Shown here: piece after piece, positions 1 to 39,991 of the stretch
Layout: every line of letters begins with the position of its first letter
How positions within the stretch are numbered: position 1 is the stretch's first letter
Source of the DNA: a virus
Lineage: Duplodnaviria > Caudoviricetes
Length of the DNA: 64,000 bases
IMG/VR virus record: IMGVR_UViG_3300008262_000013
Direction: 5' to 3' (one strand)
Notes under the pieces: model-generated
The model's database searches: none
Told to the model about the DNA's origin: nothing
Seen by the model: the letters and a program-made list of their open reading frames with translations, nothing else
Position numbers and translations under genes: made by a program

Positions 1-563
1 TTCCAACACCAGATTTATACAGCCAATTGACAGAAGAAGAATTTATGCCTAAATTGGAAGTATTAAAGGATGGATTGAAGAAAATTGCTAAACATATTTA
101 CGAAAATAAATTACCTCCTGAGAAGTTTGGATGGTTCCAACAATCTAGAGCTCTATGTGCAGCAGGTATAAATTACGTAAGTGTTGATTTAAACGGCGAT
201 TTGAGTCCTTGCCATGGATGCATGTACAAAGAATCGCATTCACATAAATTAGGAAATATTTTTAAAGTTGCAGATTTGGATCAGTTGATTGAAGAAAAAT
301 CTCAAATGTATAAGGATGCGTTGAAGAATCAACCTTTAGATTGTATGAACTGTGACAGTCAATTCTGTATGAAATGTAATGCGGCAACTTATGAAAAATC
401 AGAAAAAGAAACATATCTAGAAAAATGGAGTGATCATACAGCAAATTGGCAAGTCTGTAAAGTATTTAAGACAAACGAGATAGTACATCACGCATTAAGA
501 ACTGCACTAAAGAGTTATAAAAAGCCTGTAATTAAAATTCAGGCTGAACAGTGTACAGTATAA
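1..563 (+). CDS. Radical SAM protein, C-terminal SPASM-type domain (5'-truncated by window edge)
   Basis: The frame is open from position 3 (PTPDLYSQLTEEEF...), so the TTG at 27 is probably not the true start. It has a SPASM-like Cys pattern: CAAG-INYVSVDLNGDLSPCHGC ... CMNCDSQFCMKCNA. The CxxxCxxC motif would lie upstream of the window. Confidence 0.8.
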   Translation, partial: PTPDLYSQLTEEEFMPKLEVLKDGLKKIAKHIYENKLPPEKFGWFQQSRALCAAGINYVSVDLNGDLSPCHGCMYKESHSHKLGNIFKVADLDQLIEEKSQMYKDALKNQPLDCMNCDSQFCMKCNAATYEKSEKETYLEKWSDHTANWQVCKVFKTNEIVHHALRTALKSYKKPVIKIQAEQCTV

Positions 564-572
564 GGATAATAA

Positions 573-1697
573 ATGTTTACATTAGAAGTAAGTGTTACTG
601 AAAAGTGTAATCTAGGTTGTCCGTATTGTTATGTGGCAAACAGACCAACTTGGATGACGAAAGAAGTTTTTGATCAGGGTATGAAAGACCTGCCAAAATT
701 AATGCAAAGGTCCGGTGATAAAGATTATCATGTAAGTTTTTTTGGTGGTGAACCTTTATTAAATTGGGACCTAATAACTCACGCTGTTCCTTATTTAAGA
801 TCGGATGATAAATGTAAAGGTATTAATATCATCACAAATTTAACGATGATTGATCAAGATAAAGCTAATTATTTGAGAAATAATGGTGTTGGCGTTTCTT
901 GGTCTTTTGATGGTATGAGTTCTAATGAGAGTAGACCTTTACTTCCACTTTTGGAAAATACTAATCCAGAAACAGGCGAATTGTTTGATGGTATACTTTC
1001 GATGTATGAATATAAGAAAGATATCATAAAGAATTTGACAAACGGATGTAAGGTCATGATATGGCCAGGAAATACAAAAGACATGAAAGAGAATTTTGAA
1101 TTTCTCTTAGATTGGGGTATAGATCATCCCGATTTTAGTATTGTTCGTGATGATGTTTGGACAGAAGATGATATAATACAGTTTAGATATGAATGTGAAA
1201 GACTTGCAGATTTTTGGATAGAAAAGATAAAATCTGGTAAACCATGTTCAGTAGGATTTTTAAAACTAGCTATTTTAGATATTCTCTATGGTTTAGTGAA
1301 AGGTAAAAGACCTTTTGGTTGTTTTGCTGGAACTAATGGTGGAGTATTGATGAGTTCTGGGGAATTCTACCCTTGCGCTAGGTTTGCATCCAAAAAAATT
1401 ATGAAAATGGATGAACAGTATAATTTTAGGTACTATCAAGACATTTTTAATCCAAAAAATTATGATAAATGTGAACCGTGTGATTTGAAACAGGTGTGTA
1501 ATGCCGGTTGTACATATTCTCAAATTATGAATGATAATAAACCATTAGATAGTATTTGTGAATTGTTCCACATATATTATGAACAAGCAATGCGAGTGGT
1601 AGATGAGTGTAAAGACGAAAGAGTTTTCCAAGATTTGGTTTTAAATTATATCGAAAATGTTGGTGTTGAAAATGAAGGTGTGGAGTGTAGGAACTAA
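573..1697 (+). CDS. Radical SAM/SPASM enzyme (anSME/peptide-maturase-like architecture)
   Basis: CNLGCPYC and FFGGEP in the core, plus C-terminal CFAG...YPC...CEPCDLKQVCNAGC...C typical of a full SPASM domain. Confidence 0.92.
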   Translation: MFTLEVSVTEKCNLGCPYCYVANRPTWMTKEVFDQGMKDLPKLMQRSGDKDYHVSFFGGEPLLNWDLITHAVPYLRSDDKCKGINIITNLTMIDQDKANYLRNNGVGVSWSFDGMSSNESRPLLPLLENTNPETGELFDGILSMYEYKKDIIKNLTNGCKVMIWPGNTKDMKENFEFLLDWGIDHPDFSIVRDDVWTEDDIIQFRYECERLADFWIEKIKSGKPCSVGFLKLAILDILYGLVKGKRPFGCFAGTNGGVLMSSGEFYPCARFASKKIMKMDEQYNFRYYQDIFNPKNYDKCEPCDLKQVCNAGCTYSQIMNDNKPLDSICELFHIYYEQAMRVVDECKDERVFQDLVLNYIENVGVENEGVECRN

Positions 1698-1698
1698 C

Positions 1699-2547
1699 AT
1701 GAAAATTGTTTCTTGCACCAGTCAAGATAAAATTCTTAGAATTAACTGGCATATATTAAATTGGTGTAATTTAAAATGTTCCTACTGTAATGTAAAGGAA
1801 CATTTGAGTTATGATTATAATGATAATACTCAAATTTCAAATAATTATAAATTGATTATAAGTAGATTAAAAACTATTTCTAAACCTTTTGAGATTTGTT
1901 TGACTGGTGGGGAACCAACATTACATCCCAATATCGAAGATATATTAAGTGGATTAAATGAAATTGAAAATTTAACTAAAATTTATTTTTTTACTAACTT
2001 AACTAGATCAGAAAATTTTTATAAAAATATAAAAAGTTTTTCGAAAGTTACATATTACGCATCCTTTCACCCCGAATATCACAAAGAAGATTTTTTAGAT
2101 AAGTGTAAAAATCTAAACTGTGAGGTTCATATAAGTATGATGCCTGAATATAAAAATTACATTTTAAAAATTATTGATAAGTGTAAGTTGGAGGATATAA
2201 AATTTACATTAAATTTTTTAAGAGACACAAAATATTATTCAAGTAATTTAGAAGAAGATTTTTTCGTAGAAGCTTCTACTGCTGAATCTATGATTGATAT
2301 GGATGTTTTATATGATAATGGCTTTCGAGAAAATACTACAAATTTAAGATTATTATACGATAAAAAAAATAATTTCAAAGGCTATAAATGTTTACCGGAA
2401 TCTTTTCAAATAGAATTAAATAATGTAGTTAAAAATGTTTGCACTAACGAAATTATGCCATTATCTTTAAAAGATATTACGAAAAAGGTTATTTGTCCAA
2501 AAGAAGTTTGTGAAGGTGGACTTATGATGTATCCTAAGGAAATTTAA
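1699..2547 (+). CDS. Radical SAM enzyme with short C-terminal Cys (twitch-like) extension
   Basis: CNLKCSYC, LTGGEP and C-terminal GYKC...VC...ICPKEVC. ATG 1699 (right after the upstream stop at 1697) is preferred over the ORF-track start at 1657. Confidence 0.88.
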   Translation: MKIVSCTSQDKILRINWHILNWCNLKCSYCNVKEHLSYDYNDNTQISNNYKLIISRLKTISKPFEICLTGGEPTLHPNIEDILSGLNEIENLTKIYFFTNLTRSENFYKNIKSFSKVTYYASFHPEYHKEDFLDKCKNLNCEVHISMMPEYKNYILKIIDKCKLEDIKFTLNFLRDTKYYSSNLEEDFFVEASTAESMIDMDVLYDNGFRENTTNLRLLYDKKNNFKGYKCLPESFQIELNNVVKNVCTNEIMPLSLKDITKKVICPKEVCEGGLMMYPKEI

Positions 2548-2876
2548 TGAAGAAAAATTTTAAAAGTATTGTATCTATACCTATTAAAGTTGAGATGCAA
2601 CCAGTTGAACATCAAAGCAATAAAGTTTTGACTGTTGATGATTTGTCGAAACAAATAGAAGAAGCTAAAAAGGGAAAAGCCAAAGTCGATAGTAAGTATG
2701 TAGGATTTGAACTGACTGAGAGAGGACATTTATTCGAATATAAATTTGATTATGTTAAATTTTTGGACAATATGTCATTCATAATCAAAACGGCAAAACA
2801 GCGTAAAGAAATGAATCCTAATAATGTCTATACAATGGATAAAACTAAAAGTGCTAGACGAAAAAAAGAAATATGA
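2547..2876 (+). CDS. Hypothetical protein (109 aa, basic)
   Basis: Abuts or overlaps both neighbours (stop/start coupling); no recognisable motif. Confidence 0.65.
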   Translation: MKKNFKSIVSIPIKVEMQPVEHQSNKVLTVDDLSKQIEEAKKGKAKVDSKYVGFELTERGHLFEYKFDYVKFLDNMSFIIKTAKQRKEMNPNNVYTMDKTKSARRKKEI

Positions 2877-3766
2877 ACGCCGAAACTTTCAAAAAAAAGT
2901 ATCCTCAAATAAATTTTTATGTAGGACATGAAACGGATAAAACTGTAACTAAAGATTCGGGAGTAAATGTATTATATTTCACAAATAAATGTAATTTAGC
3001 TTGTACATATTGTTATGAAGATTTGCCTGGTCGCCCTCCACAAATTTTGTCTAAAGAAGATATTAAAAAAAGTATCGATAGAGTTATAGAAAGAGAAGAT
3101 CCCAATAGTCAAACATTATTTGTTCTTTTTGGTGGAGAAGCTACTATGGAATGGGATAATGTTTGTTATGCCATGAATTATGCCTATACAAAAAAGAAAA
3201 ATGTTCATTTTAATTTAAACACAAATGGCATAAGATACCTAAAACAAAGTTTTATAGAGGAAACAAAAAACAATTTTTTTTATAAAAAAAACTTGTTAAG
3301 TATAGACGTTAGTTTTGACGGTATAGGAAATTCGGATAGAGTCACACACGGCGGCAAGGATTCAACTAATTTAATGATCCAAGTTTTCAGAAATTTGAGA
3401 AAAAACGCAATGAAATTTAGGATAAGATACACCATACATCACAAAAACGTTCATAATTGCTATGAAGATATGTCCAATATTATTAGATATTTTAAACCAA
3501 CCCGTCTTATAACATCCGTTGCGTGGGAAACTCTCAATAAAATTCAAATTGACTTGCTCCAAAACATGAAAGAAAGTCTCAGGAAAGATTGGATAAATAG
3601 GATAATTGATGTTCCAGTTTGTGAGTTATTTTGTGACATGTGTGATGGATGTGGTGAGAGAAAGGAAGTAAAAACTTATTTTACTGACGAGGGTAATGTA
3701 ACCACATATGGTAATTATGAGAACTCCCCGAAATTTCATGATTTTAAAGAAAAGGTAATAATATGA
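2873..3766 (+). CDS. Radical SAM enzyme (anSME-like core, reduced C-terminal Cys cluster)
   Basis: CNLACTYC, LFGGEA, SFDG motif, and C-terminal CELFCDMCDGC. Confidence 0.9.
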   Translation: MNAETFKKKYPQINFYVGHETDKTVTKDSGVNVLYFTNKCNLACTYCYEDLPGRPPQILSKEDIKKSIDRVIEREDPNSQTLFVLFGGEATMEWDNVCYAMNYAYTKKKNVHFNLNTNGIRYLKQSFIEETKNNFFYKKNLLSIDVSFDGIGNSDRVTHGGKDSTNLMIQVFRNLRKNAMKFRIRYTIHHKNVHNCYEDMSNIIRYFKPTRLITSVAWETLNKIQIDLLQNMKESLRKDWINRIIDVPVCELFCDMCDGCGERKEVKTYFTDEGNVTTYGNYENSPKFHDFKEKVII

Positions 3767-4155
3767 GCACTGATAGAGAAATTGTAATTGAAAAGTTAAC
3801 GAGTATTTCACAAAATATTAAAGAGATATCGGAATATGATGAAGGCCTCGCCAACTTAATTTGGATAGGTTTTGACACAGCTATGAGTTTAGCACAATCT
3901 ATTTCTGAAAATAATGAGAAAAAGGAACAAATTGATATTTCTGTTTACATTCAACAAATTTGTGATGCTTTGGGTGTTGATATTGAACAAATGGTTTTAT
4001 CAATTATTCAAAATAACAATACTCAAGAATCTAGTAATAAAGAGCCGGACTTGGAAACTTTAGACTTTATAACATCCGATCTTGATGACTATGAAAAGTT
4101 TTTAGCAAAAAGTTCAGCAAAAAATAATTTAGATTTTTTATCAAAGGAAATATAA
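3763..4155 (+). CDS. Hypothetical acidic helical protein (130 aa)
   Basis: 4-nt overlap with the upstream rSAM; ends 1 nt before the Cys-repeat gene; no recognisable motif. Confidence 0.65.
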   Translation: MSTDREIVIEKLTSISQNIKEISEYDEGLANLIWIGFDTAMSLAQSISENNEKKEQIDISVYIQQICDALGVDIEQMVLSIIQNNNTQESSNKEPDLETLDFITSDLDDYEKFLAKSSAKNNLDFLSKEI

Positions 4156-4156
4156 G

Positions 4157-4765
4157 ATGGCTTTAGGTAAAATGTTTGACACTACTCTTGGAGTAGGTAC
4201 TAACACAACTCCTGCTGGTGAACATAAAAGGCTATCAATAACTATACAAGGAACTGTTGGTAGTAATGCAGTGAATTATGATCTTGCGAATGTTGTAGCT
4301 GGAGAGGATTTAATAACTAGATCGTTTTTTCAATCGCTGCTTGATAAAGCAAAAGAAGAAAATACGAGAAGGGGAGGCAGCGCCACTAAAGGTTCGTTAT
4401 CAACAACAAACATTAGAGCTGCCGACTTTAATAATATCCGAGCACTTTTTGCTGTTGCCGATTCTAGGACAAATCAAGTTTATAATGATTGGTCTGGTGC
4501 AAATGCTAATTTGCCTAATGGTCCGACAGTAAATAGTCCCACAATAACAACCTTTCCTACTACTGCTGCACCAACTGGTGTTCCAGCAGCAGTTACCACA
4601 GATCCAGCAACTCAAATTAGAGCTACAATTCTGAATTCTCTCATTAATGCTTTGAATTCTGCTGGGCAAGTTTGCACCTGTAATTGTAATTATTGTACTT
4701 GTAATTGCAATTATTGTACATGTAACTGTAATTACGCATGTACCTGCAACTGTAATTACTCCTAA
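4157..4765 (+). CDS. Putative modified-substrate/precursor protein with C-terminal (CTCNCNY)x4 repeat; N-terminal part virion-protein-like
   Basis: Ends ...QVCTCNCNYCTCNCNYCTCNCNYACTCNCNYS*, with 12 Cys in the last 30 aa and none elsewhere. AAGGA RBS upstream. Embedded among radical SAM genes. Confidence 0.75.
   Translation: MALGKMFDTTLGVGTNTTPAGEHKRLSITIQGTVGSNAVNYDLANVVAGEDLITRSFFQSLLDKAKEENTRRGGSATKGSLSTTNIRAADFNNIRALFAVADSRTNQVYNDWSGANANLPNGPTVNSPTITTFPTTAAPTGVPAAVTTDPATQIRATILNSLINALNSAGQVCTCNCNYCTCNCNYCTCNCNYACTCNCNYS
4673..4759 (+). repeat. Four 21-nt coding repeats encoding CTCNCNY
   Basis: tgcacctgtaattgtaattat / tgtacttgtaattgcaattat / tgtacatgtaactgtaattac / (gca) / tgtacctgcaactgtaattac; all differences are synonymous. 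Confidence 0.97.
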
Positions 4766-4776
4766 TTAAAAATATT

Positions 4777-5238
4777 ATGTTTTTTCAACTAAATCATTTA
4801 GAAGAAACCAATATGTCTTACATAAGACATTTTAATCATGGAATAAGATTGGGATCTTGGTTATTTTTGTGTTCCATCATTTTTTTAATTTATTGTCTTT
4901 TCTCTTTAAAATTTTTAGAAAACTTTGTGATAGCACGAATAAACACAATGTATCATGGATTAATGTTGCGATGGTTTGAAGATGAAACATTTAATCGTGG
5001 AAAACCAGAAAAAGATGTTTTAGAAGAAAAGAAATATAAAAAGCAGTATGTAAAATTGATCGAAGATGGAATGATAAATCCTTTCAATAAAGTTAAAATA
5101 TTTAATGGACTGTTAATTGCATCCATTACTAGTATAACACATTCTTTTATACCACAAATATTTGTGCATCATGCTGCCACCAATGTAATAAGATTATATT
5201 TTAATTATAAAATAATGGAGAAATTAAATGAAAAATGA
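4777..5238 (+). CDS. DUF6356-like small membrane-associated protein with internal insertion
   Basis: N-terminal NHLEETNMSYIRHF and C-terminal HSFIPQIF...AATNVIRL resemble the two halves of the DUF6356 pattern (H...E.Y..H / HA..P.LF...AS..I..L); recognised by eye. Confidence 0.45.
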   Translation: MFFQLNHLEETNMSYIRHFNHGIRLGSWLFLCSIIFLIYCLFSLKFLENFVIARINTMYHGLMLRWFEDETFNRGKPEKDVLEEKKYKKQYVKLIEDGMINPFNKVKIFNGLLIASITSITHSFIPQIFVHHAATNVIRLYFNYKIMEKLNEK

Positions 5239-5632
5239 TAGAGTTGAAATTGAAGGTATTGATGCGAATACTTATGCTGGAAAAGCAATTAATGCATGTA
5301 AGTTAAAAGCAAGAGGAATTTTTGGAGATGAACTTTTAACTTTTAAACTTTTGGATTTTGTAAGTTTTTTAATGTTAAATAATGAATTTACGTCAAAAGG
5401 TTATTTTATTAGTGAACATAATAGGGAAGAAATTTATATAAAAATTATAGAAACTGGTGATATACAATTAATAAATGATTTGGAAAAATATATTAATCTT
5501 AGAGATTCTATAAAAGAATTACAAAGAAAAAAAGATGAATTTTACGATATTATTGAAAAATTAAATAATTTATCAAACTTGAATGATGAAACGAGTGTTA
5601 ATGAAATTGTAGAGTCTTATCTAAGGAGATAA
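5228..5632 (+). CDS. Hypothetical protein (134 aa)
   Basis: Coupled ORF in the operon; no recognisable motif. Confidence 0.65.
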   Translation: MKNDRVEIEGIDANTYAGKAINACKLKARGIFGDELLTFKLLDFVSFLMLNNEFTSKGYFISEHNREEIYIKIIETGDIQLINDLEKYINLRDSIKELQRKKDEFYDIIEKLNNLSNLNDETSVNEIVESYLRR

Positions 5633-5634
5633 AT

Positions 5635-6627
5635 TTGATAACCTTAATAAATGGACCTAAAAGTATACATTTAAGATATATTGCTAGAAGTATTTTAGAT
5701 TCTGAAAAGATATGGAATTTTGAAGATTATACTGTAAAATATAAAAATGATGGATTCATAATTTTCGATTCAGAAGGAACAAATATATATTGCAATAACT
5801 CGGAATTGGGTAATATAAACAATGATCTTTTAATAATGACCGAAGGTCAGAAAACTTATCTATTGGAAGAAATAGATAAGTTTAGTCACGACATTAATGA
5901 AAAAATTGTAGAACATCATTTCATAGATTCTTGGCCTACAACAAGTATAGATAATTTATTCAGTGAAGAATGTTTTTTGGAAAATTATGAATCTTTAGAA
6001 TATGAAATGGAGTATCAAAAACTTTTAGATGACTTGAAGGATGATAGTATAACTAACATATGGACTGGAAGATTTTCTGCTTCTTGTATAAAAACCCTAA
6101 GGGAAAAGTTAGGAACAGAAAATGTAAGAGTTATAAACTTTTTCAGGAATCCTAGTGCTTGCATTTTTGGCAATCAATTAGATCCTGATTGTCAGTTAAA
6201 AAATGGATTAATTTCTATTTTAAATATGGTAATGGTTAAAAATTTACCAAATACCTTTAATATTAGATATGAAGATTTTTTAACCAATAAAAATTTTCAT
6301 CTAAATGAAAATCAGATAGATTTTCCGGAAAAAATTGTAAATTATAATGGTATTATTAGTCTTTATGAAAAAGAAAACTATAGATTAGAATTAATAAATG
6401 AAAATTTGATGGATCAGTTAAATCAAAACTTTTTGGATTTTGACTTGATAAAAAATTTAAAAATTGGAATGAGACCAAATAATTATAAAGATTATGAAGG
6501 TTTTGAAAAATATATGACGTTATTAGAAAATAATTTAAATTTAGAAATTGCGAATAATATTCCAAAAAACTTTTTTGAATTTTTAGGTTATACTCCATTA
6601 ACAGTGGAACAAATTATCACCGGTTAA
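5635..6627 (+). CDS. Sulfotransferase-like (P-loop fold) protein
   Basis: TTG start. Degenerate N-terminal LINGPKS, plus VINFFRNP and IRYEDF resembling the RDP and RYEDL motifs of PAPS-dependent sulfotransferases. Confidence 0.45.
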   Translation: MITLINGPKSIHLRYIARSILDSEKIWNFEDYTVKYKNDGFIIFDSEGTNIYCNNSELGNINNDLLIMTEGQKTYLLEEIDKFSHDINEKIVEHHFIDSWPTTSIDNLFSEECFLENYESLEYEMEYQKLLDDLKDDSITNIWTGRFSASCIKTLREKLGTENVRVINFFRNPSACIFGNQLDPDCQLKNGLISILNMVMVKNLPNTFNIRYEDFLTNKNFHLNENQIDFPEKIVNYNGIISLYEKENYRLELINENLMDQLNQNFLDFDLIKNLKIGMRPNNYKDYEGFEKYMTLLENNLNLEIANNIPKNFFEFLGYTPLTVEQIITG

Positions 6628-6631
6628 TTCT

Positions 6632-7510
6632 GTGTCTTTAGTAAATCTGAGAAACTATGATTTAGTTATAACTACTTCATTTGGTTTCAAATTTGGAATT
6701 TGTGGTCATTTATTTGAAATGATTGAATATTATTGGGCTATAAAAAATTGGACAAATCTAAATCCTTGTATACTATTGTCCGATGGTACTACAATAGACG
6801 AATTTAATATAGCTTTAAACACGAAATATGATAATCTAGTTGTTGAAAATTTAATATACCATCCTTTTCCAAAACTATTATTGTCAAAAAATTTATTGAT
6901 AGTTGACGGATCTTCAAGACTTGATAATTCGGAAATATATACAGATAATTTTTTTCTATTCAGATGTCATGAAAAAAATTATGACTTTTATATAAACAAT
7001 AAAGCGCAATGTCACTTATTTCAAGATTTTGAAATATATGATGATATTCCTAAAAAAATAAATGTTTTTGATTATAAGAAAAAATTATTATATTCAAAAT
7101 TTAAAAAAATAAATGATGATGTAGAAAATTCTGTAATGTTTTATTTGACAGATGTTAGTAGATTTATGTCTGAAGAAACAATAACTGAAATTTCCAATAA
7201 ATATTCTTTCAACAACACAGTAGTATTTACAAATAAACCAGAACTTTATACAAAAATAAAAACATATAAAGTTCCAGTCCCAGACATGTGGAATAAATTT
7301 TCTACATATGTTTATACTAAATTACCTGGCAAAAAAGATTGTTCCAATAGATTTATTTTAGAGTGTATGCACTATGATAAAGAAGTTGTTTATGATATAG
7401 ATTATTATGATAAAGCTTTAGAAATTAGAAAAAAGGATGGAATAAAAAATACATCTTTAGAACAAGGTGATTTTTTTATCAATTATATCAATGAACAAAT
7501 TAAGTGTTAA
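6632..7510 (+). CDS. Hypothetical protein, possibly degenerate GT-B glycosyltransferase-like
   Basis: 292-aa ORF; C-terminal DCSNRFILECMHYDKEVVY loosely resembles the GT-B E...G.PV segment. Confidence 0.35.
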   Translation: MSLVNLRNYDLVITTSFGFKFGICGHLFEMIEYYWAIKNWTNLNPCILLSDGTTIDEFNIALNTKYDNLVVENLIYHPFPKLLLSKNLLIVDGSSRLDNSEIYTDNFFLFRCHEKNYDFYINNKAQCHLFQDFEIYDDIPKKINVFDYKKKLLYSKFKKINDDVENSVMFYLTDVSRFMSEETITEISNKYSFNNTVVFTNKPELYTKIKTYKVPVPDMWNKFSTYVYTKLPGKKDCSNRFILECMHYDKEVVYDIDYYDKALEIRKKDGIKNTSLEQGDFFINYINEQIKC

Positions 7511-8483
7511 AAAAATACTGATAGATTATGATAGACCTATTAACAATAGAGCTAAATTAGATACTGGTAAACTCTGTAATTATAAATGTGAATTTTGTTA
7601 CTATAAAAATAGTTTGTCTGAGAGAGATGAACTTGATAAAATCTACAAAAGAATAGATTATTTACTTGACTATGGCATAAAAGAAATCGATCTTAGTGGT
7701 GGTGAAAGTAGTGTAGAACCGAATTGGTTTAATATATTAAATTATTGCCAAAATAAATTTGATAGAATTAGTTGCCTTAGTCACGGAGGTAAATTTAGTG
7801 ATAAAGAATTTATTCAAAAAAGTTTCGACTTAGGTTTAAGAGAGATACTCTTTAGTCTACATTGTACGGATGAAAGTGTTCATGATAAAATTGTAGGCAA
7901 AAAAGGAGCTTTTAAAAATTTAATTAAAGCTATTGAGAACTCCCACCGTTTAAATATTGAAGTTAGATTGAACACAACTGTATATCATGAAAACTACAAT
8001 AAAATAGACACTTCTTTTATAAAATCTTTAAACCCCACCCAAGTTAATTTTATTGCTCTCAATTATTGGAGAGACAATAAAGATTTTTATCCTATTGATT
8101 ACGGAACAATTTGTTCCTATGTTTCAAATTATATTGATGACCTTAAGGACTCAACCGAAGTTAATGCTAGATATTTTCCTTATTGTTTTATGCCATCAAA
8201 AGAAAAATATATAAAAAACCATTATCATCATATATATGACTTTAAAGATTGGAATAAAGCGGTTTATAGTGGAACATTAGACACTAAAAAAAATTATACG
8301 CACAATGAAAAAGTAGAACATTCTTTCTCTGAAGCGGAACGAATGAGAATTTATAGTTACTTTAAAACCGAAGAATGTACAAAGTGTAAATATTTTTATA
8401 TATGTGATGGTATAGAAAATGAACTTAAAGATAAAGTTAGTCCAAATCCTGTTTTTGGAGAAAAGATAAGATTAATATGGTAA
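7491..8483 (+). CDS. Radical SAM enzyme with C-terminal CxxCxxxxxCxG motif
   Basis: CNYKCEFC, LSGGES and C-terminal CTKCKYFYICDGI. ATG 7491 is preferred over 7467. Confidence 0.9.
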   Translation: MNKLSVKKILIDYDRPINNRAKLDTGKLCNYKCEFCYYKNSLSERDELDKIYKRIDYLLDYGIKEIDLSGGESSVEPNWFNILNYCQNKFDRISCLSHGGKFSDKEFIQKSFDLGLREILFSLHCTDESVHDKIVGKKGAFKNLIKAIENSHRLNIEVRLNTTVYHENYNKIDTSFIKSLNPTQVNFIALNYWRDNKDFYPIDYGTICSYVSNYIDDLKDSTEVNARYFPYCFMPSKEKYIKNHYHHIYDFKDWNKAVYSGTLDTKKNYTHNEKVEHSFSEAERMRIYSYFKTEECTKCKYFYICDGIENELKDKVSPNPVFGEKIRLIW

Positions 8484-9163
8484 ACATTGATTTATCTATT
8501 TTAATACTTACGCATAATAGGCCTAAACTTTTTGAAAGAAGTTTAAATTCAATTTTATCATATTTAACTCCAAAAATAGAAGTAATTGTAAATAATGATA
8601 GTTCTGATATAAAAGAAATTGAAAATACTAATGTAAATTATTATTATGAAAAATTTAATAATATATCAAGTGTATATGAATTTTTATTTCTTAAGTCTAA
8701 AGGAAAATATATTTATTTTTTGGAAGATGATGACTATTTGAGGAAGCAATTTTTCGAACAAAGTTTTGATGCTGATATTATAGCTGGAAATTATTGTCCT
8801 ACCTATAAGCCAGATAATACTTTTGAAATAATAAATTTGTTTAAAGATGAAGTTATACACGATAAATGTGAATTTTTAAATAAATTAAACTTAGAACATT
8901 TACAATTAGGACAATTTATATTTAAAAGAAGTGTAATTGAAGATTTTTATTTTGGAATAGATAACAATATTCATAATGATATTAGACTGGTCTATCACGC
9001 TTCACAAAAGTCGAAGAAATTTAGAATGACCAATAAAGTATTTTACTACCAAACAAAAGATGGTAATGATAATATTTCTTTTCCTGGAACAAAAAAAAGT
9101 ATAAACGTAACGGCATCTTTGGACTTTTTAAAAAATTATGAAATACAAAATACAACATCATAA
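8477..9163 (+). CDS. Glycosyltransferase family 2 (GT-A fold)
   Basis: LSILILTHNRP N-terminus, VNND, and YIYFLEDDD (DxD-like) motifs. Confidence 0.85.
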   Translation: MVNIDLSILILTHNRPKLFERSLNSILSYLTPKIEVIVNNDSSDIKEIENTNVNYYYEKFNNISSVYEFLFLKSKGKYIYFLEDDDYLRKQFFEQSFDADIIAGNYCPTYKPDNTFEIINLFKDEVIHDKCEFLNKLNLEHLQLGQFIFKRSVIEDFYFGIDNNIHNDIRLVYHASQKSKKFRMTNKVFYYQTKDGNDNISFPGTKKSINVTASLDFLKNYEIQNTTS

Positions 9164-21885: not shown

Positions 21886-22200
21886 ATGCTTAATATAACT
21901 GAATCTGCTGTAAATGAAATCAAACAATATTTAGACGATGAAAACAAATACTTGAGGGTCTATGTTGAGGGTGGTGGATGTTCTGGTTTTAAATATGGTT
22001 TTGATTTTGAAGAATCTGTTTCCGAAGATGATTTTGAAATTCCTTTAGATGGTTTTTCAATTCTTGTAGACTCTTTCAGTATGCAATATTTGGAAACCGC
22101 AACTTTGAATTTCAAAGAAGATATTATGGGACACACTTTTACTATAGAAAACCCTAATGCACAGACGACCTGTGGCTGTGGAAGTAGCTTTTCGGTATAG
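21886..22200 (+). CDS. erpA: A-type Fe-S carrier protein (ErpA/IscA/HesB family)
   Basis: LRVYVEGGGCSGFKYGF...LVDSFSMQYL...NPNAQTTCGCGSSF with all three conserved Cys. Strong RBS before ATG 21886. The ErpA versus IscA assignment is tentative. Confidence 0.9.
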   Translation: MLNITESAVNEIKQYLDDENKYLRVYVEGGGCSGFKYGFDFEESVSEDDFEIPLDGFSILVDSFSMQYLETATLNFKEDIMGHTFTIENPNAQTTCGCGSSFSV

Positions 22201-22248
22201 TAAAGATGTCAGTTTGACTAAATACCACATTAACAAAGGGAGTTTAAT

Positions 22249-22581
22249 GTGGCTGAATTTGTAGAACTTACCATAGACCAGGGTGCGACTTTTAACACCG
22301 TAATTACTGTAAATGATGGTACCGGCGCAGGCCAAAACCTGTATGGATATATTGCCAGGTCCCAGATGAGAAAATCTTACTACTCCTCAACAAAATACGA
22401 TTTTAATGTTCAAGTGACCACTCCTAACATTGGAGAAATCACTATGATCATGTCAGCAGCAAATACTGCAAATTTAACTCCGGGACGATACGTTTATGAT
22501 GTAGAAATAGATGATGGCGCAGGTGAAATCACAAGAATTTTTGAAGGTATAATTACTGTCCTTCCTAACGTTACGAGATAA
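22249..22581 (+). CDS. Small virion structural protein (T4-like phage LTIDQGATF family)
   Basis: LTIDQGATF...ARSQMRKSY...GRYVYDVEI...RIFEGIITV pattern. CTAAATA variant promoter at 22218-22224 and GGAG RBS. Confidence 0.7.
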   Translation: MAEFVELTIDQGATFNTVITVNDGTGAGQNLYGYIARSQMRKSYYSSTKYDFNVQVTTPNIGEITMIMSAANTANLTPGRYVYDVEIDDGAGEITRIFEGIITVLPNVTR

Positions 22582-22584
22582 AAA

Positions 22585-22785
22585 ATGCCAATAAATGTAA
22601 ACGTAAAACCACAAAAAACAACTATATCTTCGGTTACCGTGGCCAGAACTGCAAATTTAGCTCTATCACAATTGAATAATGTTGAAACTCAGGGTGTGGA
22701 AGAAGGATTCGTTTTGACTTATGAATCTGGATCCAATAAGTATGTTATGAAAGAAATTCCTGTAATTAACGGCGGAAGCTTCTAA
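22585..22785 (+). CDS. Small hypothetical virion-associated protein (66 aa)
   Basis: Fills the gap between structural genes; ends in the ..INGGSF motif common in T4-like fibre-associated proteins. Confidence 0.6.
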   Translation: MPINVNVKPQKTTISSVTVARTANLALSQLNNVETQGVEEGFVLTYESGSNKYVMKEIPVINGGSF

Positions 22786-25700
22786 GTGTCAACAGCAATT
22801 GTAACCAAGTATTCTACCGCGAATACTGTACCTACTGCAAACTCACTTCTTGGTGGTGAATTAGCTTATTCATTTCCTTCTGGTAATTTATTCATAGGAA
22901 CTGAAGCCGGATCGTATGAAATTATTGGTGGTAGTTATTACACTAACATAATAGATCAGAGAAGTAGTAACACTTCATCCGGAACTTTAGTTTTACGGAA
23001 TGTAGATGGTGATATTAGAACTAGTGTTTTTATATCAACACAAGATGATACTCCTGGATTTATTGGAAATTTAGATGGTATTGCGGATAGAGCAAACGCA
23101 CTCCATAATTCAGTTCAAATAGTTCTTTCGGGTGATGTTCAATCGAATGTATTTACGACCTTTGGTAATACAGTTAATTTTCAAGTTGAATTAAGTACTA
23201 TAGTTCCCGGTGTATCTGGTACATACGGTAATTCTACTAATATTCCTGTAATTACAGTTGACACCAAGGGTAGAGTAACAGCTGTTTCCAATTTAGCGAT
23301 TTCTGTAGCATCACAAGAACAAGCAACTGCTGCCTTTGATAAAGCTAATGCAGCAAATGTATTAGCGCAAGCAGCTTTTAATGCAGCCAATAGTTTAAGT
23401 CCCAATTTTAATCAGTCTGCATTTGATCGTGCTAATGCGGCTTTTAATTTAGCAAATTCTAGTTCTTTAGCTGCTAATACTCCTAGTTCAATTGCAAATA
23501 TAGCTTTAGATTTGGCTGGACTAAGTTATATACATGCTAATGCGGCTTTTGCTGTTGCGAATACTGGAGCTAACGCAGGACAAACTGCAAATGAAGCCTA
23601 CAGTTTAGTCAGTTATGTTTCAACTTCCGTAAATGCTTCGTTTGATACAGCAAATTCAGCTTATGATGCTTCAGTAAATACAGCTAATATTGTTGTTGCT
23701 CTTGGTGAGTTAATACAGAGTTTTCAGGGAGTTGCAGTAAATGCTGAAAATATTTCAGTATCTACAAATACTTCTACTACATTAGCTTATAGACACGCCA
23801 ACGCTTCATTTAATGCTGCTAATACTAAATTAAGTTTAACTGGCGGCACAATTAATGGTAACGTATCGATTGTTGGTAATTTAAGTATATCGGGTGATGT
23901 CAATTATATTGGCACAAATCAGTTACTTATTGGCGACAATATCATCACATTAAATGCTGATTTACCTAACAATTTAGCTCCCACTCAAAATGCTGGCATA
24001 GAAGTTGCAAGAGGTTCCTCATCAAATGTTCATATAACATGGAATGAAGTTGCAGATAGATGGACATTTACAAACGATGGTACAAACTATAGTAATTTTG
24101 CAACAGACTCAGCCGAGTCATATGCGAATGCCGCCTTTGCACAAGCTAATTCATCATTTGCATTAGGTACTCAAGCTGGTATTAGTGTTAGTGCAGCTTT
24201 TGATAGAACCAACTCTGCATTTACAAGAACAAATTCTTCGTTTAGTCAAGCAAATGCCTCCTATAATACGGCTAATGCAGCGTTTATACAGGCTAATACA
24301 CCAAGTCATGTTGCAAACTCCGCGTCACTTTATGCCAATGCAGCGTTTGCTGCTGCGAATTCTTTAAGTCCAGAGTTCAACCAGAGTTCTTTTGATAAAG
24401 CTAATGCAGCTTTTAATTCTTCAAACTCTGTTGCTAACGTAGTAGGTTCTTATTCTAATTCAGCATACACTCATGCGAATGCGGCATTTGCTGCTGCAAA
24501 TTCAATTACGTTTTCTGTAACTGACTTATATGCAAGAGCTCATTCTAATGCTGCTTATACAAATGCCAATAATACGTTAGCTGTAGCAGATTCTTCTTAT
24601 ACACAGGCAAACCTTGCTACTGTTATTGCTGTTGCTGCTTATGCTAAGGCGAATAGTATTATTGATTTGGCAACAGGTCAAGCAGCTTTCGATGCTTCGA
24701 ATAGTGCTGGTAATTATGCTAATTCCAGTTTTATACATTCTAATGCAGCATTTGCTTATGCAAATACTTTAGCTGCTGACTCTGTAGACTTCTTTGCTAG
24801 ACCTCATGTTAATGCGGCATTTACACATGCCAATGCATCGTTTATACATGTAAACTCCGCATTTAGTGCCGTAAATACTAAATTCTCATCTTCTGGTGGA
24901 ACAATTACCGGTAATGTAATAATTAACGGTAATGTAACGATAGATGCAATTCAGGCATCACTTAGTGTATCGACTTTAAGTGTGCAAGACAATATTATTG
25001 ATATTTCATCGGAGACAGTTGGTACACCTACAAATCCTGCTGGTATTAGAGTAATTCGTGGAGATGAGGTACCCGTACAGTTTAGATGGAACGAATCATT
25101 ATTAAAATGGACATTTACTAATGATGGATTTACTTATAGTAATGTAGGTTCGTCAACTGCTGAAGAATATGCTAACTCAGCTTTCTTAAAGTCCAACTCA
25201 TCTTATGAGAGTCAGAATACAACAGGCATTTATGCTAACTTAGCTTTCACTCATGCAAATTCTGCTTATGAAAGTCAGAATGTAACAGGCATTTATGCTA
25301 ATTCCGCTTATTCTTTAGCTAATACTAAATTCTCATCTTCTGGTGGTACTGTAAGTGGTGATATCGTTGTTACTGGCAATTTAACAATAGTTGGTGAGAC
25401 AGTTTATGCTAATACACAAACTGTATTAATCAAAGATAATATAATTACATTAAATGCAGCAACCAATTTATTATCTCCTGCTATCTTTAATGCTGGTATA
25501 GAGGTTAATAGAGGATCATTATCAAACGTAGCTTTAATTTGGAATGAAACTGTAGACAATTGGCAGTATACGGTAGATGGAACAACCTATACAAACCTTT
25601 CTTCTGCATCGGCCGAATCTTACGCTAATGCAGCATTTGCTGCACAAAACACAACTGCAATTTACGCCAACTCATCCTTTAGTGCAGCTAATACTGCTGA

Positions 25701-28056
25701 CGATAAAGCTGTAACGTCTGGTAGTTATGCTAACTCTGCTTTTGTTGCTGCAAATTCTTCTGGTGCTTATGCTAATGCTGCGTTTAATTCTTCGAACATA
25801 GCTTTTTCAGTTGGTGCTACATCTGGCGCTTATGCTAATGCAGCATTTGCTTTAGCCAATACGTTATCTATAAGTGCAGTTGATACTTATGCAAGACCAC
25901 ATGTTAACGCAGCATTTACTCATGCTAATGCATCATTTAATTTAGCTAACACCGCAAATGATACTTCTTTAAGTGGTAGTAATTATGCTAACTCGGCATT
26001 TAGTGCTGCAAATACCTCGGATTCTAAAGCTGTAACATCAGGATCATATGCTAATGGAGCTTATACTCAAGCAAATACCGCAACTACTAATGCGGCCACT
26101 GCTGATGGTAAAGCTGTAACAGCAGGTGACTATGCTAATGGTGCGTACAGTGCTGCAAATACTTCCGATTCTAAAGCTGTAACAGCTGGCAGTTATGCTA
26201 ACGGTGCTTATGATAAGGCTAATACAGCAGACACTAAAGCTGTAACATCAGGTGTTTATGCAAATTCAGCATTTACTGTTGCTAATACTGCTGATGTTAA
26301 GGCTGTAACATCTGGTTCTTATGCTAACTCAGCGTATGAACAAGCTAATACTTCAAATACCAATGCTGCAACTGCTGATTCAAAAGCAGTAACAGCCGGT
26401 AACTATGCTAATGCTGCCTTTGGATCTGCAAATACATCTGATAGCAAAGCTGTAACGGCAGGTAACTATGCCAATTCAGCATACGGACAAGCAAACACTG
26501 CTACAACTAATGCTGCTACAGCTGATGGTAAAGCAGTAACATCCGGATCTTATGCTAACTCTGCTTTTGATACAGCTAATACTGCTGACGGTAAAGCTGT
26601 AACATCTGGTAATTACGCTAACTCTGCTTATGGTCAGGCCAACACCGCAACTACAAATGCTTCTACTGCTGACAGTAAAGCAGTAACAGCTGGCGATTAT
26701 GCTAATTCTGCTTACAGTCAAGCTAATACATCGGATAGTAAAGCGGTAAGTGCAGGATCTTATGCTAATGGAGCTTATACTCAAGCTAATACCGCAACTA
26801 CTAATGCAGCTACAGCTGATGATAAAGCGATAAGTGCTGGATTATACGCCAATTCTGCGTTCACTGCTGCTAATACTGCTGACAGTAAAGCATCAAGTGC
26901 AGGATCTTATGCTAATGGAGCCTATACTCAAGCAAATACCGCAACTACAAATGCGGCTACTGCTGACAGTAAAGCGACAAGTGCTGGACTATACGCCAAT
27001 TCAGCATTTGGTGCGGCTAATACCAAGTTCTCATCTTCAGGTGGTACCGTAAGTGGTGATGTAATCATTACTGGTAATGTAACAATTCAAGGAAATACCG
27101 CCGAATTTAGTGTACCACATTTCATTGTTCAAGATGGCATAATTGAAGTTAATGTTGAACAGATAGGAAATAATCCCGTAGAAAACGCTGGTTTAAGAGC
27201 CATGCGTGGAGATTTAAATCCAACATTAATTTTATGGAATGAAACGAATGATAGTTGGTCGTTTACAAATGATGGATTAAATTATAGTAATATTGCTTCA
27301 CAATCAGCAGAAAGTTATGCTAATGCAGCATTCAGTTCTGCCAATACGGCCAACAGTAATGCTATAAGTGCAGGCAGTTACGCTAATTCAGCTTATGCTT
27401 TAGCTAATACTATATCTTCTGGCGCAATTGATAACTACGCTAGACCACATGTTAATGCAGCATTTACACATGCTAATTCATCTTTTGATGCTGCAAATAC
27501 TGCCGACTCTAAAGCTGTAACAGCTGGTAGCTATGCCAATAGTGCATTTGGTGTTGCTAATACTAAGTTAAGCACATCAGGAGGCACAATCTCTGGTGAT
27601 TTAAGTGTTACTGGTAATTTGACGGTATTAGGTAATGCTACTTCTATAGCTGTTTCAAGTATAAAAATAGATGATTCTTTAATTCAATTAGCTGCTAATA
27701 ATGAATCGTCCGATACGATTGATATAGGTTTCTTTGGTCATTATAGCCCAGATGCTGGCGTGTCTAAAAAACATACTGGTTTATTCCGTGACGCTAATGA
27801 TGGTCGTTATTATCTATTTTACAATTATGAAGATCCTAGTTTCGAAACTCTATCGCCGAATAATGTAATTGATGTTGCTAATTCTACTTTTAGAGTTGCT
27901 AATTTAACTGCAAACGTCATTACAGATGTAATATCAATTCGTGGATATGATCCAATTAATTATACAAATACTGTTTATACTCATGCAAATGCATCTTACT
28001 CTGCAGCAAATACTGCTATATCCGACGCTTTAGCCTTTGCCATTGCACTAGGATAA
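22786..28056 (+). CDS. Long tail-fibre-like protein (1756 aa) with ANxAF repeats and five globular modules
   Basis: GTG start; N-terminal P....L..GELA...(G.LFIG) fibre motif; Ala/Asn/Ser/Thr repeats; five SGGT..G...TGNL...DN.I.LN...WNE modules; ends AFAIALG. Confidence 0.8.
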   Translation: MSTAIVTKYSTANTVPTANSLLGGELAYSFPSGNLFIGTEAGSYEIIGGSYYTNIIDQRSSNTSSGTLVLRNVDGDIRTSVFISTQDDTPGFIGNLDGIADRANALHNSVQIVLSGDVQSNVFTTFGNTVNFQVELSTIVPGVSGTYGNSTNIPVITVDTKGRVTAVSNLAISVASQEQATAAFDKANAANVLAQAAFNAANSLSPNFNQSAFDRANAAFNLANSSSLAANTPSSIANIALDLAGLSYIHANAAFAVANTGANAGQTANEAYSLVSYVSTSVNASFDTANSAYDASVNTANIVVALGELIQSFQGVAVNAENISVSTNTSTTLAYRHANASFNAANTKLSLTGGTINGNVSIVGNLSISGDVNYIGTNQLLIGDNIITLNADLPNNLAPTQNAGIEVARGSSSNVHITWNEVADRWTFTNDGTNYSNFATDSAESYANAAFAQANSSFALGTQAGISVSAAFDRTNSAFTRTNSSFSQANASYNTANAAFIQANTPSHVANSASLYANAAFAAANSLSPEFNQSSFDKANAAFNSSNSVANVVGSYSNSAYTHANAAFAAANSITFSVTDLYARAHSNAAYTNANNTLAVADSSYTQANLATVIAVAAYAKANSIIDLATGQAAFDASNSAGNYANSSFIHSNAAFAYANTLAADSVDFFARPHVNAAFTHANASFIHVNSAFSAVNTKFSSSGGTITGNVIINGNVTIDAIQASLSVSTLSVQDNIIDISSETVGTPTNPAGIRVIRGDEVPVQFRWNESLLKWTFTNDGFTYSNVGSSTAEEYANSAFLKSNSSYESQNTTGIYANLAFTHANSAYESQNVTGIYANSAYSLANTKFSSSGGTVSGDIVVTGNLTIVGETVYANTQTVLIKDNIITLNAATNLLSPAIFNAGIEVNRGSLSNVALIWNETVDNWQYTVDGTTYTNLSSASAESYANAAFAAQNTTAIYANSSFSAANTADDKAVTSGSYANSAFVAANSSGAYANAAFNSSNIAFSVGATSGAYANAAFALANTLSISAVDTYARPHVNAAFTHANASFNLANTANDTSLSGSNYANSAFSAANTSDSKAVTSGSYANGAYTQANTATTNAATADGKAVTAGDYANGAYSAANTSDSKAVTAGSYANGAYDKANTADTKAVTSGVYANSAFTVANTADVKAVTSGSYANSAYEQANTSNTNAATADSKAVTAGNYANAAFGSANTSDSKAVTAGNYANSAYGQANTATTNAATADGKAVTSGSYANSAFDTANTADGKAVTSGNYANSAYGQANTATTNASTADSKAVTAGDYANSAYSQANTSDSKAVSAGSYANGAYTQANTATTNAATADDKAISAGLYANSAFTAANTADSKASSAGSYANGAYTQANTATTNAATADSKATSAGLYANSAFGAANTKFSSSGGTVSGDVIITGNVTIQGNTAEFSVPHFIVQDGIIEVNVEQIGNNPVENAGLRAMRGDLNPTLILWNETNDSWSFTNDGLNYSNIASQSAESYANAAFSSANTANSNAISAGSYANSAYALANTISSGAIDNYARPHVNAAFTHANSSFDAANTADSKAVTAGSYANSAFGVANTKLSTSGGTISGDLSVTGNLTVLGNATSIAVSSIKIDDSLIQLAANNESSDTIDIGFFGHYSPDAGVSKKHTGLFRDANDGRYYLFYNYEDPSFETLSPNNVIDVANSTFRVANLTANVITDVISIRGYDPINYTNTVYTHANASYSAANTAISDALAFAIALG

Positions 28057-28059
28057 ATA
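28053..28059 (+). promoter_or_regulatory. T4-type late promoter (ATAAATA)
   Basis: Overlaps the fibre stop codon, 20 nt upstream of the next ATG with GAGG RBS. Confidence 0.55.
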
Positions 28060-28079
28060 TTGTTTATTGAGGAAAATAA

Positions 28080-28403
28080 ATGGCAAATACGTTTAAAAAT
28101 AGTTTTTCACAAAGTGTAGGTCAAACTTCAGACACAATTTATACTGCTACTGGTGTTCAAGCCACCGTTATAGGTATGAGTGTTGCGAATGTTACTCAGG
28201 CAGATGTAAAAGCAAATGTTTTTGTTACTTCTTCCGGAACAGATTATTTCTTAGTTAAAAGTGCATTGATAGAACCTGGTAGTGCATTAGTTCCTATTGG
28301 AGGAGATCAAAAATTGGTTTTAGAGTCTGGTGACTTAATTAAAGTTCAATCAGATACATCTTCTTCTTTAGATGTAATCTTAAGCGTATTAGAAATAAGC
28401 TAA
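28080..28403 (+). CDS. Small beta-rich virion protein (MANTFKN family), fibre partner
   Basis: 107 aa; IEPGSALVPIGGDQKLVLESGDLIKV...LDVILSVLEIS pattern common in phage tail regions. Confidence 0.7.
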   Translation: MANTFKNSFSQSVGQTSDTIYTATGVQATVIGMSVANVTQADVKANVFVTSSGTDYFLVKSALIEPGSALVPIGGDQKLVLESGDLIKVQSDTSSSLDVILSVLEIS

Positions 28404-28404
28404 C

Positions 28405-37791: not shown

Positions 37792-37795
37792 TTAA

Positions 37796-38983
37796 ATGGC
37801 AGCACCAAATATAGTTAATGTAAGTCAAATAACAGCGAATACAAATTTAGCAAATGTTACCACAGTTGTATCAAACGTGGTGACGAATTCTGCAAGTAGT
37901 GGTAAAGTATATAAAGTAAATAACATACAACTTGCAAATTATAGTGCTGCAACAGTTACAGCCAACGTAATTTTTAATAGAAATTCTGCTTCACCAACAT
38001 CTTATTATATTGCTGGATCTATTTCAATACCTGCTACTTCTACTTTAGTTGTTGTAGCAAAAGATACTTCATTTTATATGGAAGAAAGTGATGTTTTACA
38101 ATTGTCTAGTACAGGTATTTTATCTAGTAGTATCGAATCACAGTACTTAAAGAGTTCTGGTAAATGGCCAGGATTAACAACAACAGTTAATTTCTTAGTC
38201 GTTGCTGGTGGTGGCGGAGGATCAGAAGATAATACAGGTGGAGGTGGAGGAGGAGCAGGAGGATATAGAACTGATACTACAGAACTCGGAACCGGAACAT
38301 ATACAATTACTATTGGTGCTGGCGGTAGTGGAGGAAGCACGGATGGTGCTAGAGGAGCCAATGGATCAGTTTCTCAAATAACAAATGGAACATACACAAT
38401 GACTTCTACTGGAGGTGGCGGTGGAGGTTCACAAACACTTAATGGTTTTCCTGGTGGGTCTGGAGGTGGAGCATCTAGAGCATTACTTGGTGCTGCCGGC
38501 AATTTAGGAGGATACACTCCACCCGAAGGACAAAGAGGTGGTAGAGGTATAGATGGTACTCCATACGCCGGCGGCGGTGGCGGTGGTGCTGGTGTTGCTG
38601 GCGCTAATGCCTCTGTAACTGGTGGAGGTTCTGGAGGCACAGGAAATACTTGGCTTAATGGAGTAGTTTATGCAGGAGGCGGCGGAGGAGGTTCCCGTGT
38701 AGCTGGAACAGCAGGAGCGGGCGGAAGTGGCGGCGGCGGCAACGGATCAAACACACATACTGCGCCGGGAGCTTCTGGAACAGCAAACAGAGGAGGTGGT
38801 GGTGGAGGAGGAGGTTATAACAGCGGTACGAGTGATGGTGGTGCCGGCGGATCAGGTGTTGTTATATTAAGATTTCCAACCGCTTCTGCAAACGCTACTT
38901 CTACTGGAGGATCACCAACATATACTGAAAGTGATGGATATAGATATTTTACTTTCACAGCTTCAGGTTCAATTACATTCTAA
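37796..38983 (+). CDS. Virion protein: MAAPNIV-type N-domain fused to glycine-rich domain
   Basis: N-terminal ~105 aa homologous to 28080..28403, followed by VVAGGGGG...GGSGVVILRF Gly-rich repeats. Confidence 0.75.
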   Translation: MAAPNIVNVSQITANTNLANVTTVVSNVVTNSASSGKVYKVNNIQLANYSAATVTANVIFNRNSASPTSYYIAGSISIPATSTLVVVAKDTSFYMEESDVLQLSSTGILSSSIESQYLKSSGKWPGLTTTVNFLVVAGGGGGSEDNTGGGGGGAGGYRTDTTELGTGTYTITIGAGGSGGSTDGARGANGSVSQITNGTYTMTSTGGGGGGSQTLNGFPGGSGGGASRALLGAAGNLGGYTPPEGQRGGRGIDGTPYAGGGGGGAGVAGANASVTGGGSGGTGNTWLNGVVYAGGGGGGSRVAGTAGAGGSGGGGNGSNTHTAPGASGTANRGGGGGGGGYNSGTSDGGAGGSGVVILRFPTASANATSTGGSPTYTESDGYRYFTFTASGSITF

Positions 38984-39006
38984 CATTCGTTAAAACCTTA
39001 GATGGC

Positions 39007-39013
39007 ATAAATA
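39007..39013 (+). promoter_or_regulatory. T4-type late promoter upstream of gp13
   Basis: Intergenic CATAAATA followed by AAGGAG RBS. Confidence 0.7.
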
Positions 39014-39032
39014 CTCTGTAAAAGGAGAATTT

Positions 39033-39989: not shown

Positions 39990-39991
39990 AC

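Follow-up and report, generated by a model that had tools for sequence, protein, structure and literature searches.

In a 64,000-nucleotide stretch of viral DNA (Duplodnaviria; Caudoviricetes; IMG/VR record IMGVR_UViG_3300008262_000013), which we refer to as the window, three enzymes of the radical S-adenosylmethionine (rSAM) type are encoded upstream of a gene for a 202-residue protein that ends in a tandem cysteine repeat. We consider it somewhat more probable than the alternatives together, at roughly 55%, that these enzymes, A1 (positions 3 to 563), A2 (573 to 1697) and A3 (2873 to 3766), post-translationally modify the C-terminal cysteine block of this fibre-type protein (4157 to 4765; repeat block 4673 to 4762), likely by introducing thioethers. 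The analysis establishes which genes are present, their cysteine motifs, their family resemblance and their conserved co-occurrence, whereas we infer which protein is modified, what kind of bond is formed, which residues accept it and how the enzymes share the work.

The radical SAM enzymes A1, A2 and A3

A first-pass annotation of this DNA had placed three rSAM genes close upstream of the Cys-repeat gene, and this placement was borne out. All three genes belong to Pfam family PF04055, run on the plus strand and lie at most 4.2 kb upstream of the Cys-repeat gene. A2 and A3 scored 47.2 and 47.4 bits against this family, and a full-length A1 of 368 residues from a 214-kb contig (L001:6173-7279) scored 55.4 bits, the threshold being 29.5. 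In the window, the A1 gene is open at its 5' end and only the C-terminal half is present; this part is 97% identical to the full-length copy and does not include the CX3CX2C motif, the gene being cut by the window edge. The motif is invariant in the A1, A2 and A3 families and occupies residues 12-19 of the 374-residue A2.

The same annotation had described all three enzymes as SPASM-type, which was evaluated with the motif CX9-15GX4C ... CX2CX5CX3C ... C (PF13186/TIGR04085) that binds two auxiliary clusters. The C-terminus of A2 carries the canonical seven-cysteine SPASM motif (CX17C, CX2CX5CX3C and a further C), which is invariant in 26 sequences, and the alignment of A2 with the peptide maturase CteB runs through the SPASM region of the latter; the Pfam SPASM model gave no hit in A2. 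A1 exceeds the SPASM thresholds of Pfam (22.9 bits, 21.5 needed) and TIGR04085 (32.5 bits, 27 needed), and its seven invariant auxiliary cysteines show an unusual spacing (CX17C, CX2CX4CX2C and one further C). Judged by these motifs, A1 and A2 can be assigned to the SPASM-domain rSAM enzymes. The assignment does not extend to A3 (297 residues), which has only four invariant C-terminal cysteines, spaced CX3CX2CX2C, and in which neither the CX9-15GX4C hairpin nor a match to a SPASM hidden Markov model (HMM) was found; A3 is an enzyme with one C-terminal cluster motif and is not of the SPASM type. Likewise, the contrast that had been drawn between SPASM enzymes upstream of the repeat gene and compact rSAM enzymes downstream is not clean, as a compact rSAM gene (1657 to 2547) falls within the same 4 kb.

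The closest solved structure for A1, A2 and A3, in sequence and in fold, is CteB, the maturase of the SCIFF ranthipeptide CteA (PDB 5WGG/5WHY). The A2 family profile scored 121 bits against CteB versus 59 bits against the sulfatase maturase anSME, and the A1 family profile 89 bits (E 3e-24) versus 43 bits. For A3, an AlphaFold2 (AF2) model of good quality (predicted local distance difference test score, pLDDT, 85.8; predicted template modelling score, pTM, 0.85) was ranked by Foldseek with CteB 5WHY first (E 2.6e-12), followed by ChlB, anSME and SkfB. Clustering with sulfatase maturases had been named beforehand as an outcome that would speak against the proposed role and was not seen, because the profile scores for CteB exceed those for anSME. 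The anSME family TIGR03942 itself reached only 41-65 bits versus a threshold of 349, and the sulfatase target motif C/S-x-P/A-x-R is absent from the 202-residue protein. Among the NCBIfam families, that of the ranthipeptide maturase PapB (NF047865) was the top match for each enzyme, with 132 bits for A2, 80 for A3 and 77 for A1, and with 107 bits for the A1 of a sister lineage with a six-residue repeat (see below), the equivalog threshold being 340. The Crp-type family TIGR04463 scored 48.5 bits versus a threshold of 525, so that the phage enzymes are not members, and the CXXX-repeat maturase family TIGR04115 scored 50-62 bits with A1 versus a threshold of 350. Taken as a whole, the scores indicate that A1 to A3 resemble thioether-forming peptide maturases of the CteB and PapB kind far more than sulfatase maturases.

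The rSAM core and the SPASM cysteines of CteB align with those of the phage enzymes. CteB differs in having an N-terminal RiPP (peptide synthesized on the ribosome and modified post-translationally) recognition element (RRE) of about 100 residues, which is absent from the phage enzymes, and in acting on a 45-residue peptide, in which it forms a Cys-Thr link, whereas the candidate substrate of the phage enzymes is a protein. In the combination of an rSAM and a SPASM domain without an RRE and in its protein substrate, anSME (PDB 4K36-4K39) is like the phage enzymes, yet its match to A1 and A2 is much weaker than that of CteB. In addition, anSME has eight SPASM cysteines, compared with seven in A1 and A2.

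Most characterised rSAM maturases of RiPPs employ an RRE, and the first-pass annotation had proposed to look for one at the N-termini. A fused RRE is excluded in A1, A2 and A3, because CX3CX2C begins too near the N-terminus (residue 11-12 in A1 and A2, residue 40 in A3) and no additional domain is seen in the model of A3. When the two small proteins encoded in the array, sm109 and sm130, were considered as stand-alone RREs, no family match was obtained, Atlas searches returned nothing usable and the model of sm109 was poor. A predicted complex of A2 with residues 140-202 of the Cys-repeat protein, three 4Fe-4S clusters and SAM received a score of 0.02, which is not evidence either way.

The cysteine-repeat protein and its linkage to the enzymes

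The putative substrate starts with an N-terminal domain that varies, continues with a conserved helix and ends in the block (CTCNCNY)x4, which holds 12 cysteines in 30 residues. More than 554 homologues were found, and a Cys block with 9-15 cysteines is present in 120 of 120 among the matches listed. The block is nearly invariant, while the remainder of the protein averages 31% column identity. In 283 heptad units, position 4 is N, D or Q in 97%, position 6 is N or D in 98% and position 7 is Y or F in 97%; on the strength of positions 4 and 6, each heptad can be read as two C-x-x-N/D pairs. Many homologues continue immediately after the block with a Peptidase_S74 domain, a self-cleaving folding chaperone of phage fibres, which starts with Ser-Asp-x-Arg-Leu-Lys. 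Some retain only a 12-residue stump of this domain, and the protein of the window ends exactly at the first serine of this start. By these features the Cys-repeat protein appears to be a fibre-type structural protein and not a short RiPP precursor, and the peptide substrate of the first-pass annotation has to be replaced by a candidate that is a folded fibre-type protein of 170-300 residues. Between one and four repeat genes occur in tandem, with differing N-terminal domains, the same block and one shared enzyme set; three or four such genes with one enzyme set were seen at L029:5168-7226 and L031:7445-8996. At another locus (L062:9781-9996), the repeat gene has shrunk to an open reading frame (ORF) of 71 residues without the Cys block in an otherwise intact module, either because the block was lost naturally or because the repeat collapsed during assembly.

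The linkage between the enzymes and the repeat protein was analyzed in phage contigs from IMG/VR. All five contigs with homologues of the Cys-repeat protein at 40-52% identity carry, in this order, an rSAM gene of 368 codons, one of 374 codons, a small gene, an rSAM gene of about 290 codons, a second small gene and the Cys-repeat gene. A search with the repeat-DNA pattern alone yielded 21 contigs, in which A1 and A2 are present wherever the upstream sequence suffices, with no counter-example. Profile scans for A1 and A2 retrieved 158 loci, and pooling with the earlier loci resulted in 87 non-redundant locus clusters; for each rSAM, the HMM class agrees with the C-terminal cysteine signature. 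CxCxCx[YF] heptads were found in 40 of the 87 clusters, and 33 of these 40 have A1, A2 and A3 within 6 kb. In heptad contigs without A3 nearby, which are 9-44% complete, a search of the whole contig for A3 gave only cross-hits to the A1/A2 core. A further 12 of the 87 clusters encode the same kind of protein with CxCxxx hexads, and here A1 and A2 are present in 12 of 12 and A3 in 0 of 12.

The proteins of the hexad sister lineage (L081:7113-7832, L083, L088, L091 and others) show the CxCxxx block followed by a full Peptidase_S74 domain, and at L100:7133-7636 CHSN/CHSD tetrads stand in place of the hexads. Phage contigs also hold genes related more remotely to A1 and A2, and these adjoin CXXX repeats of the CHSN or CQxx type; in L190, L199 and L201, distant A2-like rSAM genes lie next to genes for proteins of 270-370 residues with long CQxx/CExx repeats. 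The CXXX-repeat system (TIGR04115) is like the phage system in pairing an rSAM/SPASM enzyme with a tandem Cys repeat, and differs in its period of 4 with one cysteine, compared with a period of 7 with three cysteines in the phage protein.

The same components are found in cultured Campylobacter phages. In 15 of 15 Firehammervirus records, a 534-residue protein carries seven heptads after the same kind of helix, and each record also has an orthologue of A1 (28-30% identity, E ~1e-31 to 1e-38; E 1e-45 in the pairwise comparison with the orthologue of phage F379) and of A2 (37% identity, E ~1e-65, within a range of 36-40% over the comparisons made). An orthologue of A3 was detected in F379, the only record searched for this enzyme, with 30-31% identity over the full length (E 2e-22). 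The genes are scattered in F379, with A1 about 4 kb from the repeat gene and A2 and A3 35 and 62 kb away. A tblastn search of cultured phages with the Cys-repeat protein found nothing, probably owing to the low-complexity filter. We also considered an argument from a sister genus lacking all of the parts and dropped it, because a search with the tail tube returned only the same 15 records and six Vibrio phages and so gave no sign that further genera of Campylobacter phages had been sampled.

The scattered arrangement in F379, where only A1 is near the repeat gene, would fit a single true maturase, either A1, which is the commonest direct neighbour of the repeat gene, or A2, with the other enzymes being paralogues that act on other substrates such as o134 (a conserved downstream gene product), small proteins or virion proteins. 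One enzyme can suffice for a repeated substrate, as with PapB, which on its own introduces six Cys-Asp links into its peptide (PMC9413430). We nevertheless regard this as very unlikely, since 32+1+4+12 repeat-bearing clusters contain both A1 and A2, and since these enzymes are 97% and 91% identical between the window and L001, a conservation not shared by the N-terminal domain of the substrate, which is only about 50% identical.

A second explanation is that the rSAM enzymes are unrelated to the repeat protein, being sugar, cofactor or host take-over genes held nearby by inherited synteny, and that the block folds by itself as a trimer with metal ions or disulfides. In many contigs, the module comes directly after a gene for a truncated UDP-glucose dehydrogenase and is followed by sugar genes and more rSAM genes, these phages carry 8-11 rSAM genes, and the S74 chaperone of many homologues could fold the fibre without a maturase. 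Against it, the linkage persists through at least six gene orders, among them one with the repeat gene upstream of A1, and includes contigs without the dehydrogenase nearby; in the A2-A1-repeat and A2-A3-A1-repeat lineages, A1 stands directly upstream of the repeat gene. Moreover, in a tree of A1 the partners of hexad proteins form one clade apart from the partners of heptad proteins, and the enzymes resemble peptide and protein maturases, not the sugar rSAM enzymes DesII or BtrN. We therefore consider an unrelated function unlikely, if less so than a single maturase. The proposal of the first-pass annotation that the upstream enzymes are the best maturase candidates was supported, as the A1, A2 and A3 families are thioether-maturase-like and travel together with Cys-repeat proteins across divergent contigs, gene orders and Campylobacter phages.

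Proposed chemistry and comparison with known systems

If A1, A2 and A3 do modify the Cys block, the likeliest products would be intramolecular thioethers (ranthionine or sactionine), in which the sulfur of a cysteine is joined to a carbon of a nearby residue, and the best acceptors would be the Asn/Asp residues at +3 from the first and the second cysteine of each heptad. We propose this for A1 and A2 because of their seven SPASM cysteines, their resemblance to CteB and PapB, and the C-x-x-N/D motif of the repeat, which is like that of CrpA. Like CteB, PapB and CrpC, A1 and A2 would cleave SAM at the CX3CX2C cluster and take a hydrogen from the acceptor residue, while an auxiliary cluster would hold the substrate cysteine. 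With its one auxiliary cluster, A3 may be an extra enzyme for three-cysteine heptads only, serving the third cysteine. Recognition would be through the block and the conserved helix just before it, because no RRE was found and the substrate is free to vary in its N-terminal domain. Such cross-linking would leave the end of a virion fibre covalently stapled. A more detailed version, in which the enzymes act in different registers, with one C-x-x-N/D pair stapled by A1, one by A2 and the third cysteine handled by A3, giving a regular ladder of thioether rings at the C-terminal end of the fibre that replaces the role of the S74 chaperone, is possible and yet doubtful; it draws on the many family members that have lost S74 or keep the 12-residue stump.

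To our knowledge, the thioether chemistry of rSAM enzymes is known mainly from small secreted peptides, with few protein substrates, namely QHNDH and, since 2026, CrpA. In the literature searched, we found no description of an rSAM thioether system of this kind or of such chemistry on virus particle proteins.

A close parallel is the Crp system, in which CrpC, a SPASM rSAM enzyme of Methanococcus voltae, cross-links the 28.8-kDa protein CrpA, whose repeats contain C-X-X-Q/D, through ranthionine bonds (PMC13692751, 2026); in CteB-type enzymes, seven SPASM cysteines leave one iron free for the substrate cysteine, as stated for CrpC (PMC13692751). Both systems combine a protein substrate that carries a C-terminal tandem Cys repeat with C-x-x-(Q/D/N), an enzyme with seven SPASM cysteines, and several substrate-like paralogues per cluster. 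They differ in that CrpC has an RRE, whereas A1 to A3 have none, that the Crp system uses one enzyme and the phage system two to three, and that the repeat has 17 residues in Crp and 7 in the phage. In addition, the Crp system is cellular, whereas the phage system is viral and its candidate substrate is of the fibre type, often with an S74 chaperone. By analogy, the phage system would work like the Crp system without being a member of it. In PapB/PapA (freyrasin), too, multiple thioethers are formed on one substrate with repeated Cys-acceptor motifs (CX3D) (PMC9413430); here the acceptor spacing is +4, compared with +3 in the phage, and the substrate carries a leader peptide, unlike the phage protein.

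The enzymes may also act on the Cys block by a different radical chemistry, such as a bond (C-C or C-S) with the Tyr/Phe of position 7, cysteine oxidation that yields formylglycine or a thioaldehyde, or else epimerisation or methylation. The thioether-family scores are all below their thresholds, close matches such as ChlB, TigE, anSME, SuiB, DynA and YhhB differ in their chemistry, position 7 is aromatic in 97% of the heptads, and cyclophane-forming SPASM families are among the matches. We regard such a chemistry as the most serious of the rivals and still as rather unlikely, since CteB and the PapB family are by far the top matches of each of the three enzymes, the invariant cysteines with Asn/Asp at +3 are arranged as in CrpA (PMC13692751), and the protein lacks the C-x-P/A-x-R motif that sulfatase maturases target.

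Several observations weigh against thioether formation by A1, A2 and A3. The chemistry is extrapolated, as none of the family scores comes near its curated cut-off; PapB needs an Asp or Glu acceptor, whereas the phage repeat has mostly Asn; and an RRE was found neither fused nor stand-alone. An alternating-Cys strand of a trimeric fibre could coordinate metal or become disulfide-bonded with no enzyme involved. Most linked loci come from related T4-like phages, so that their co-occurrence is partly shared ancestry, and the 8-11 rSAM genes per phage make co-presence less specific. The association of A3 with heptads is one evolutionary event, because the hexad lineage is one clade and the tree of A1 contains a single transition. 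This association is the sole support for the suggestion of the first-pass annotation that each enzyme may take its own position of the heptad. With only one independent transition between heptads and hexads, the idea of one enzyme per cysteine was dropped as a statistical claim.

Neighbouring genes, genome context and significance

The first 9 kb of the window are tightly packed with genes, all on one strand. At the junctions 563/573, 2547/2547, 2876/2873, 3766/3763 and 4155/4157, starts and stops overlap by 1-4 nucleotides or sit at most 10 nucleotides apart, which suggests that the array from A1 to the Cys-repeat gene is a single transcription unit; the exception to these otherwise tight 1-4-nucleotide overlaps is the 41-nucleotide overlap between A2 and the compact rSAM gene. 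This compact rSAM (1657 to 2547, plus strand, 296 residues) is an accessory insertion between A2 and sm109 that matches phrog_13987. It was seen at this position in just two locus clusters (L040 and L051), amounting to a few marine contigs, no orthologue was found in Campylobacter phage F379 at E <=0.01, and we read it as a lineage-specific insertion.

Two small genes flank A3 on the plus strand. The gene sm109 (2547 to 2876, 109 residues), located between A2 and A3, is kept in the main heptad lineage at 42-79% identity; it matched no Pfam, PHROG or NCBIfam family, and its AF2 model is poor (pLDDT 61, pTM 0.26). The gene sm130 (3763 to 4155, 130 residues), directly upstream of the Cys-repeat gene, encodes a helical, acidic protein that is kept in the same lineage at 36-70% identity, with no Pfam or PHROG family and a poor Atlas model. 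Downstream of the repeat gene, o134 (5228 to 5632, plus strand; phrog_25260) is conserved in almost every lineage, heptad and hexad alike, and a homologue with 31% identity lies near A2 in Campylobacter phage CP21 (L162); an Atlas search with o134 gave nothing usable. A 292-residue protein with a conserved Ile-Cys-Gly-His motif (6632 to 7510) is also widely retained downstream.

A further rSAM gene (7467 to 8483, plus strand) encodes an HxsC-like enzyme of 338 residues with a C-terminal CX2CX5C motif. It is widely shared, with an orthologue of 43.5% identity in F379 and with copies within the flanks in 10 of 12 clusters of the hexad type and in 12 of 35 of the heptad type, and it is absent from one complete heptad-type genome of 157 kb. 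The enzyme may be a further member of the system, its membership being uncertain. At least eight rSAM genes are present in the window, 11 in F379 and nine ORFs in the complete 157-kb relative; no genome was found whose only rSAM genes are the A1-A3 trio.

Sugar genes adjoin the module of enzymes and repeat protein, and further rSAM genes lie among them. In most marine lineages, a truncated UDP-glucose dehydrogenase-like gene of about 245 codons, with the N-terminal and central domains only (for example L001:5398-6135), sits immediately before A1 or A2. The G+C content of the rSAM and sugar region (1 to 22000) is 25-31%, versus 36-41% in the region with giant structural genes (22000 to 40000), and this contrast suggests that positions 1 to 22000 form a separately evolving island. 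Because T4-type genes for terminase, sheath, portal, scaffold and major head proteins are found in the remainder of the window, the source genome is that of a T4-like aquatic myophage; a comparison with 50,697 cultured-phage records revealed no near relative. Scans for promoters and terminators over positions 1 to 9000 gave chance-level results. The T4 late-promoter word TATAAATA occurs once in the 64 kb versus 13.3 copies expected by chance, and this sole copy is located at 54109 to 54116, 23 nucleotides upstream of the head scaffold gene.

If A1, A2 and A3 modify the Cys-repeat protein as proposed, this would represent the first case of a virus particle in which enzymes introduce covalent cross-links of this kind, and it would explain the abundant and so far unexplained rSAM genes of Campylobacter phages and many marine T4-like phages. 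The compact, regular seven-residue repeat, together with leader-independent enzymes, would possibly be useful for protein stapling. As the Campylobacter phages can be cultured, the question is directly testable.

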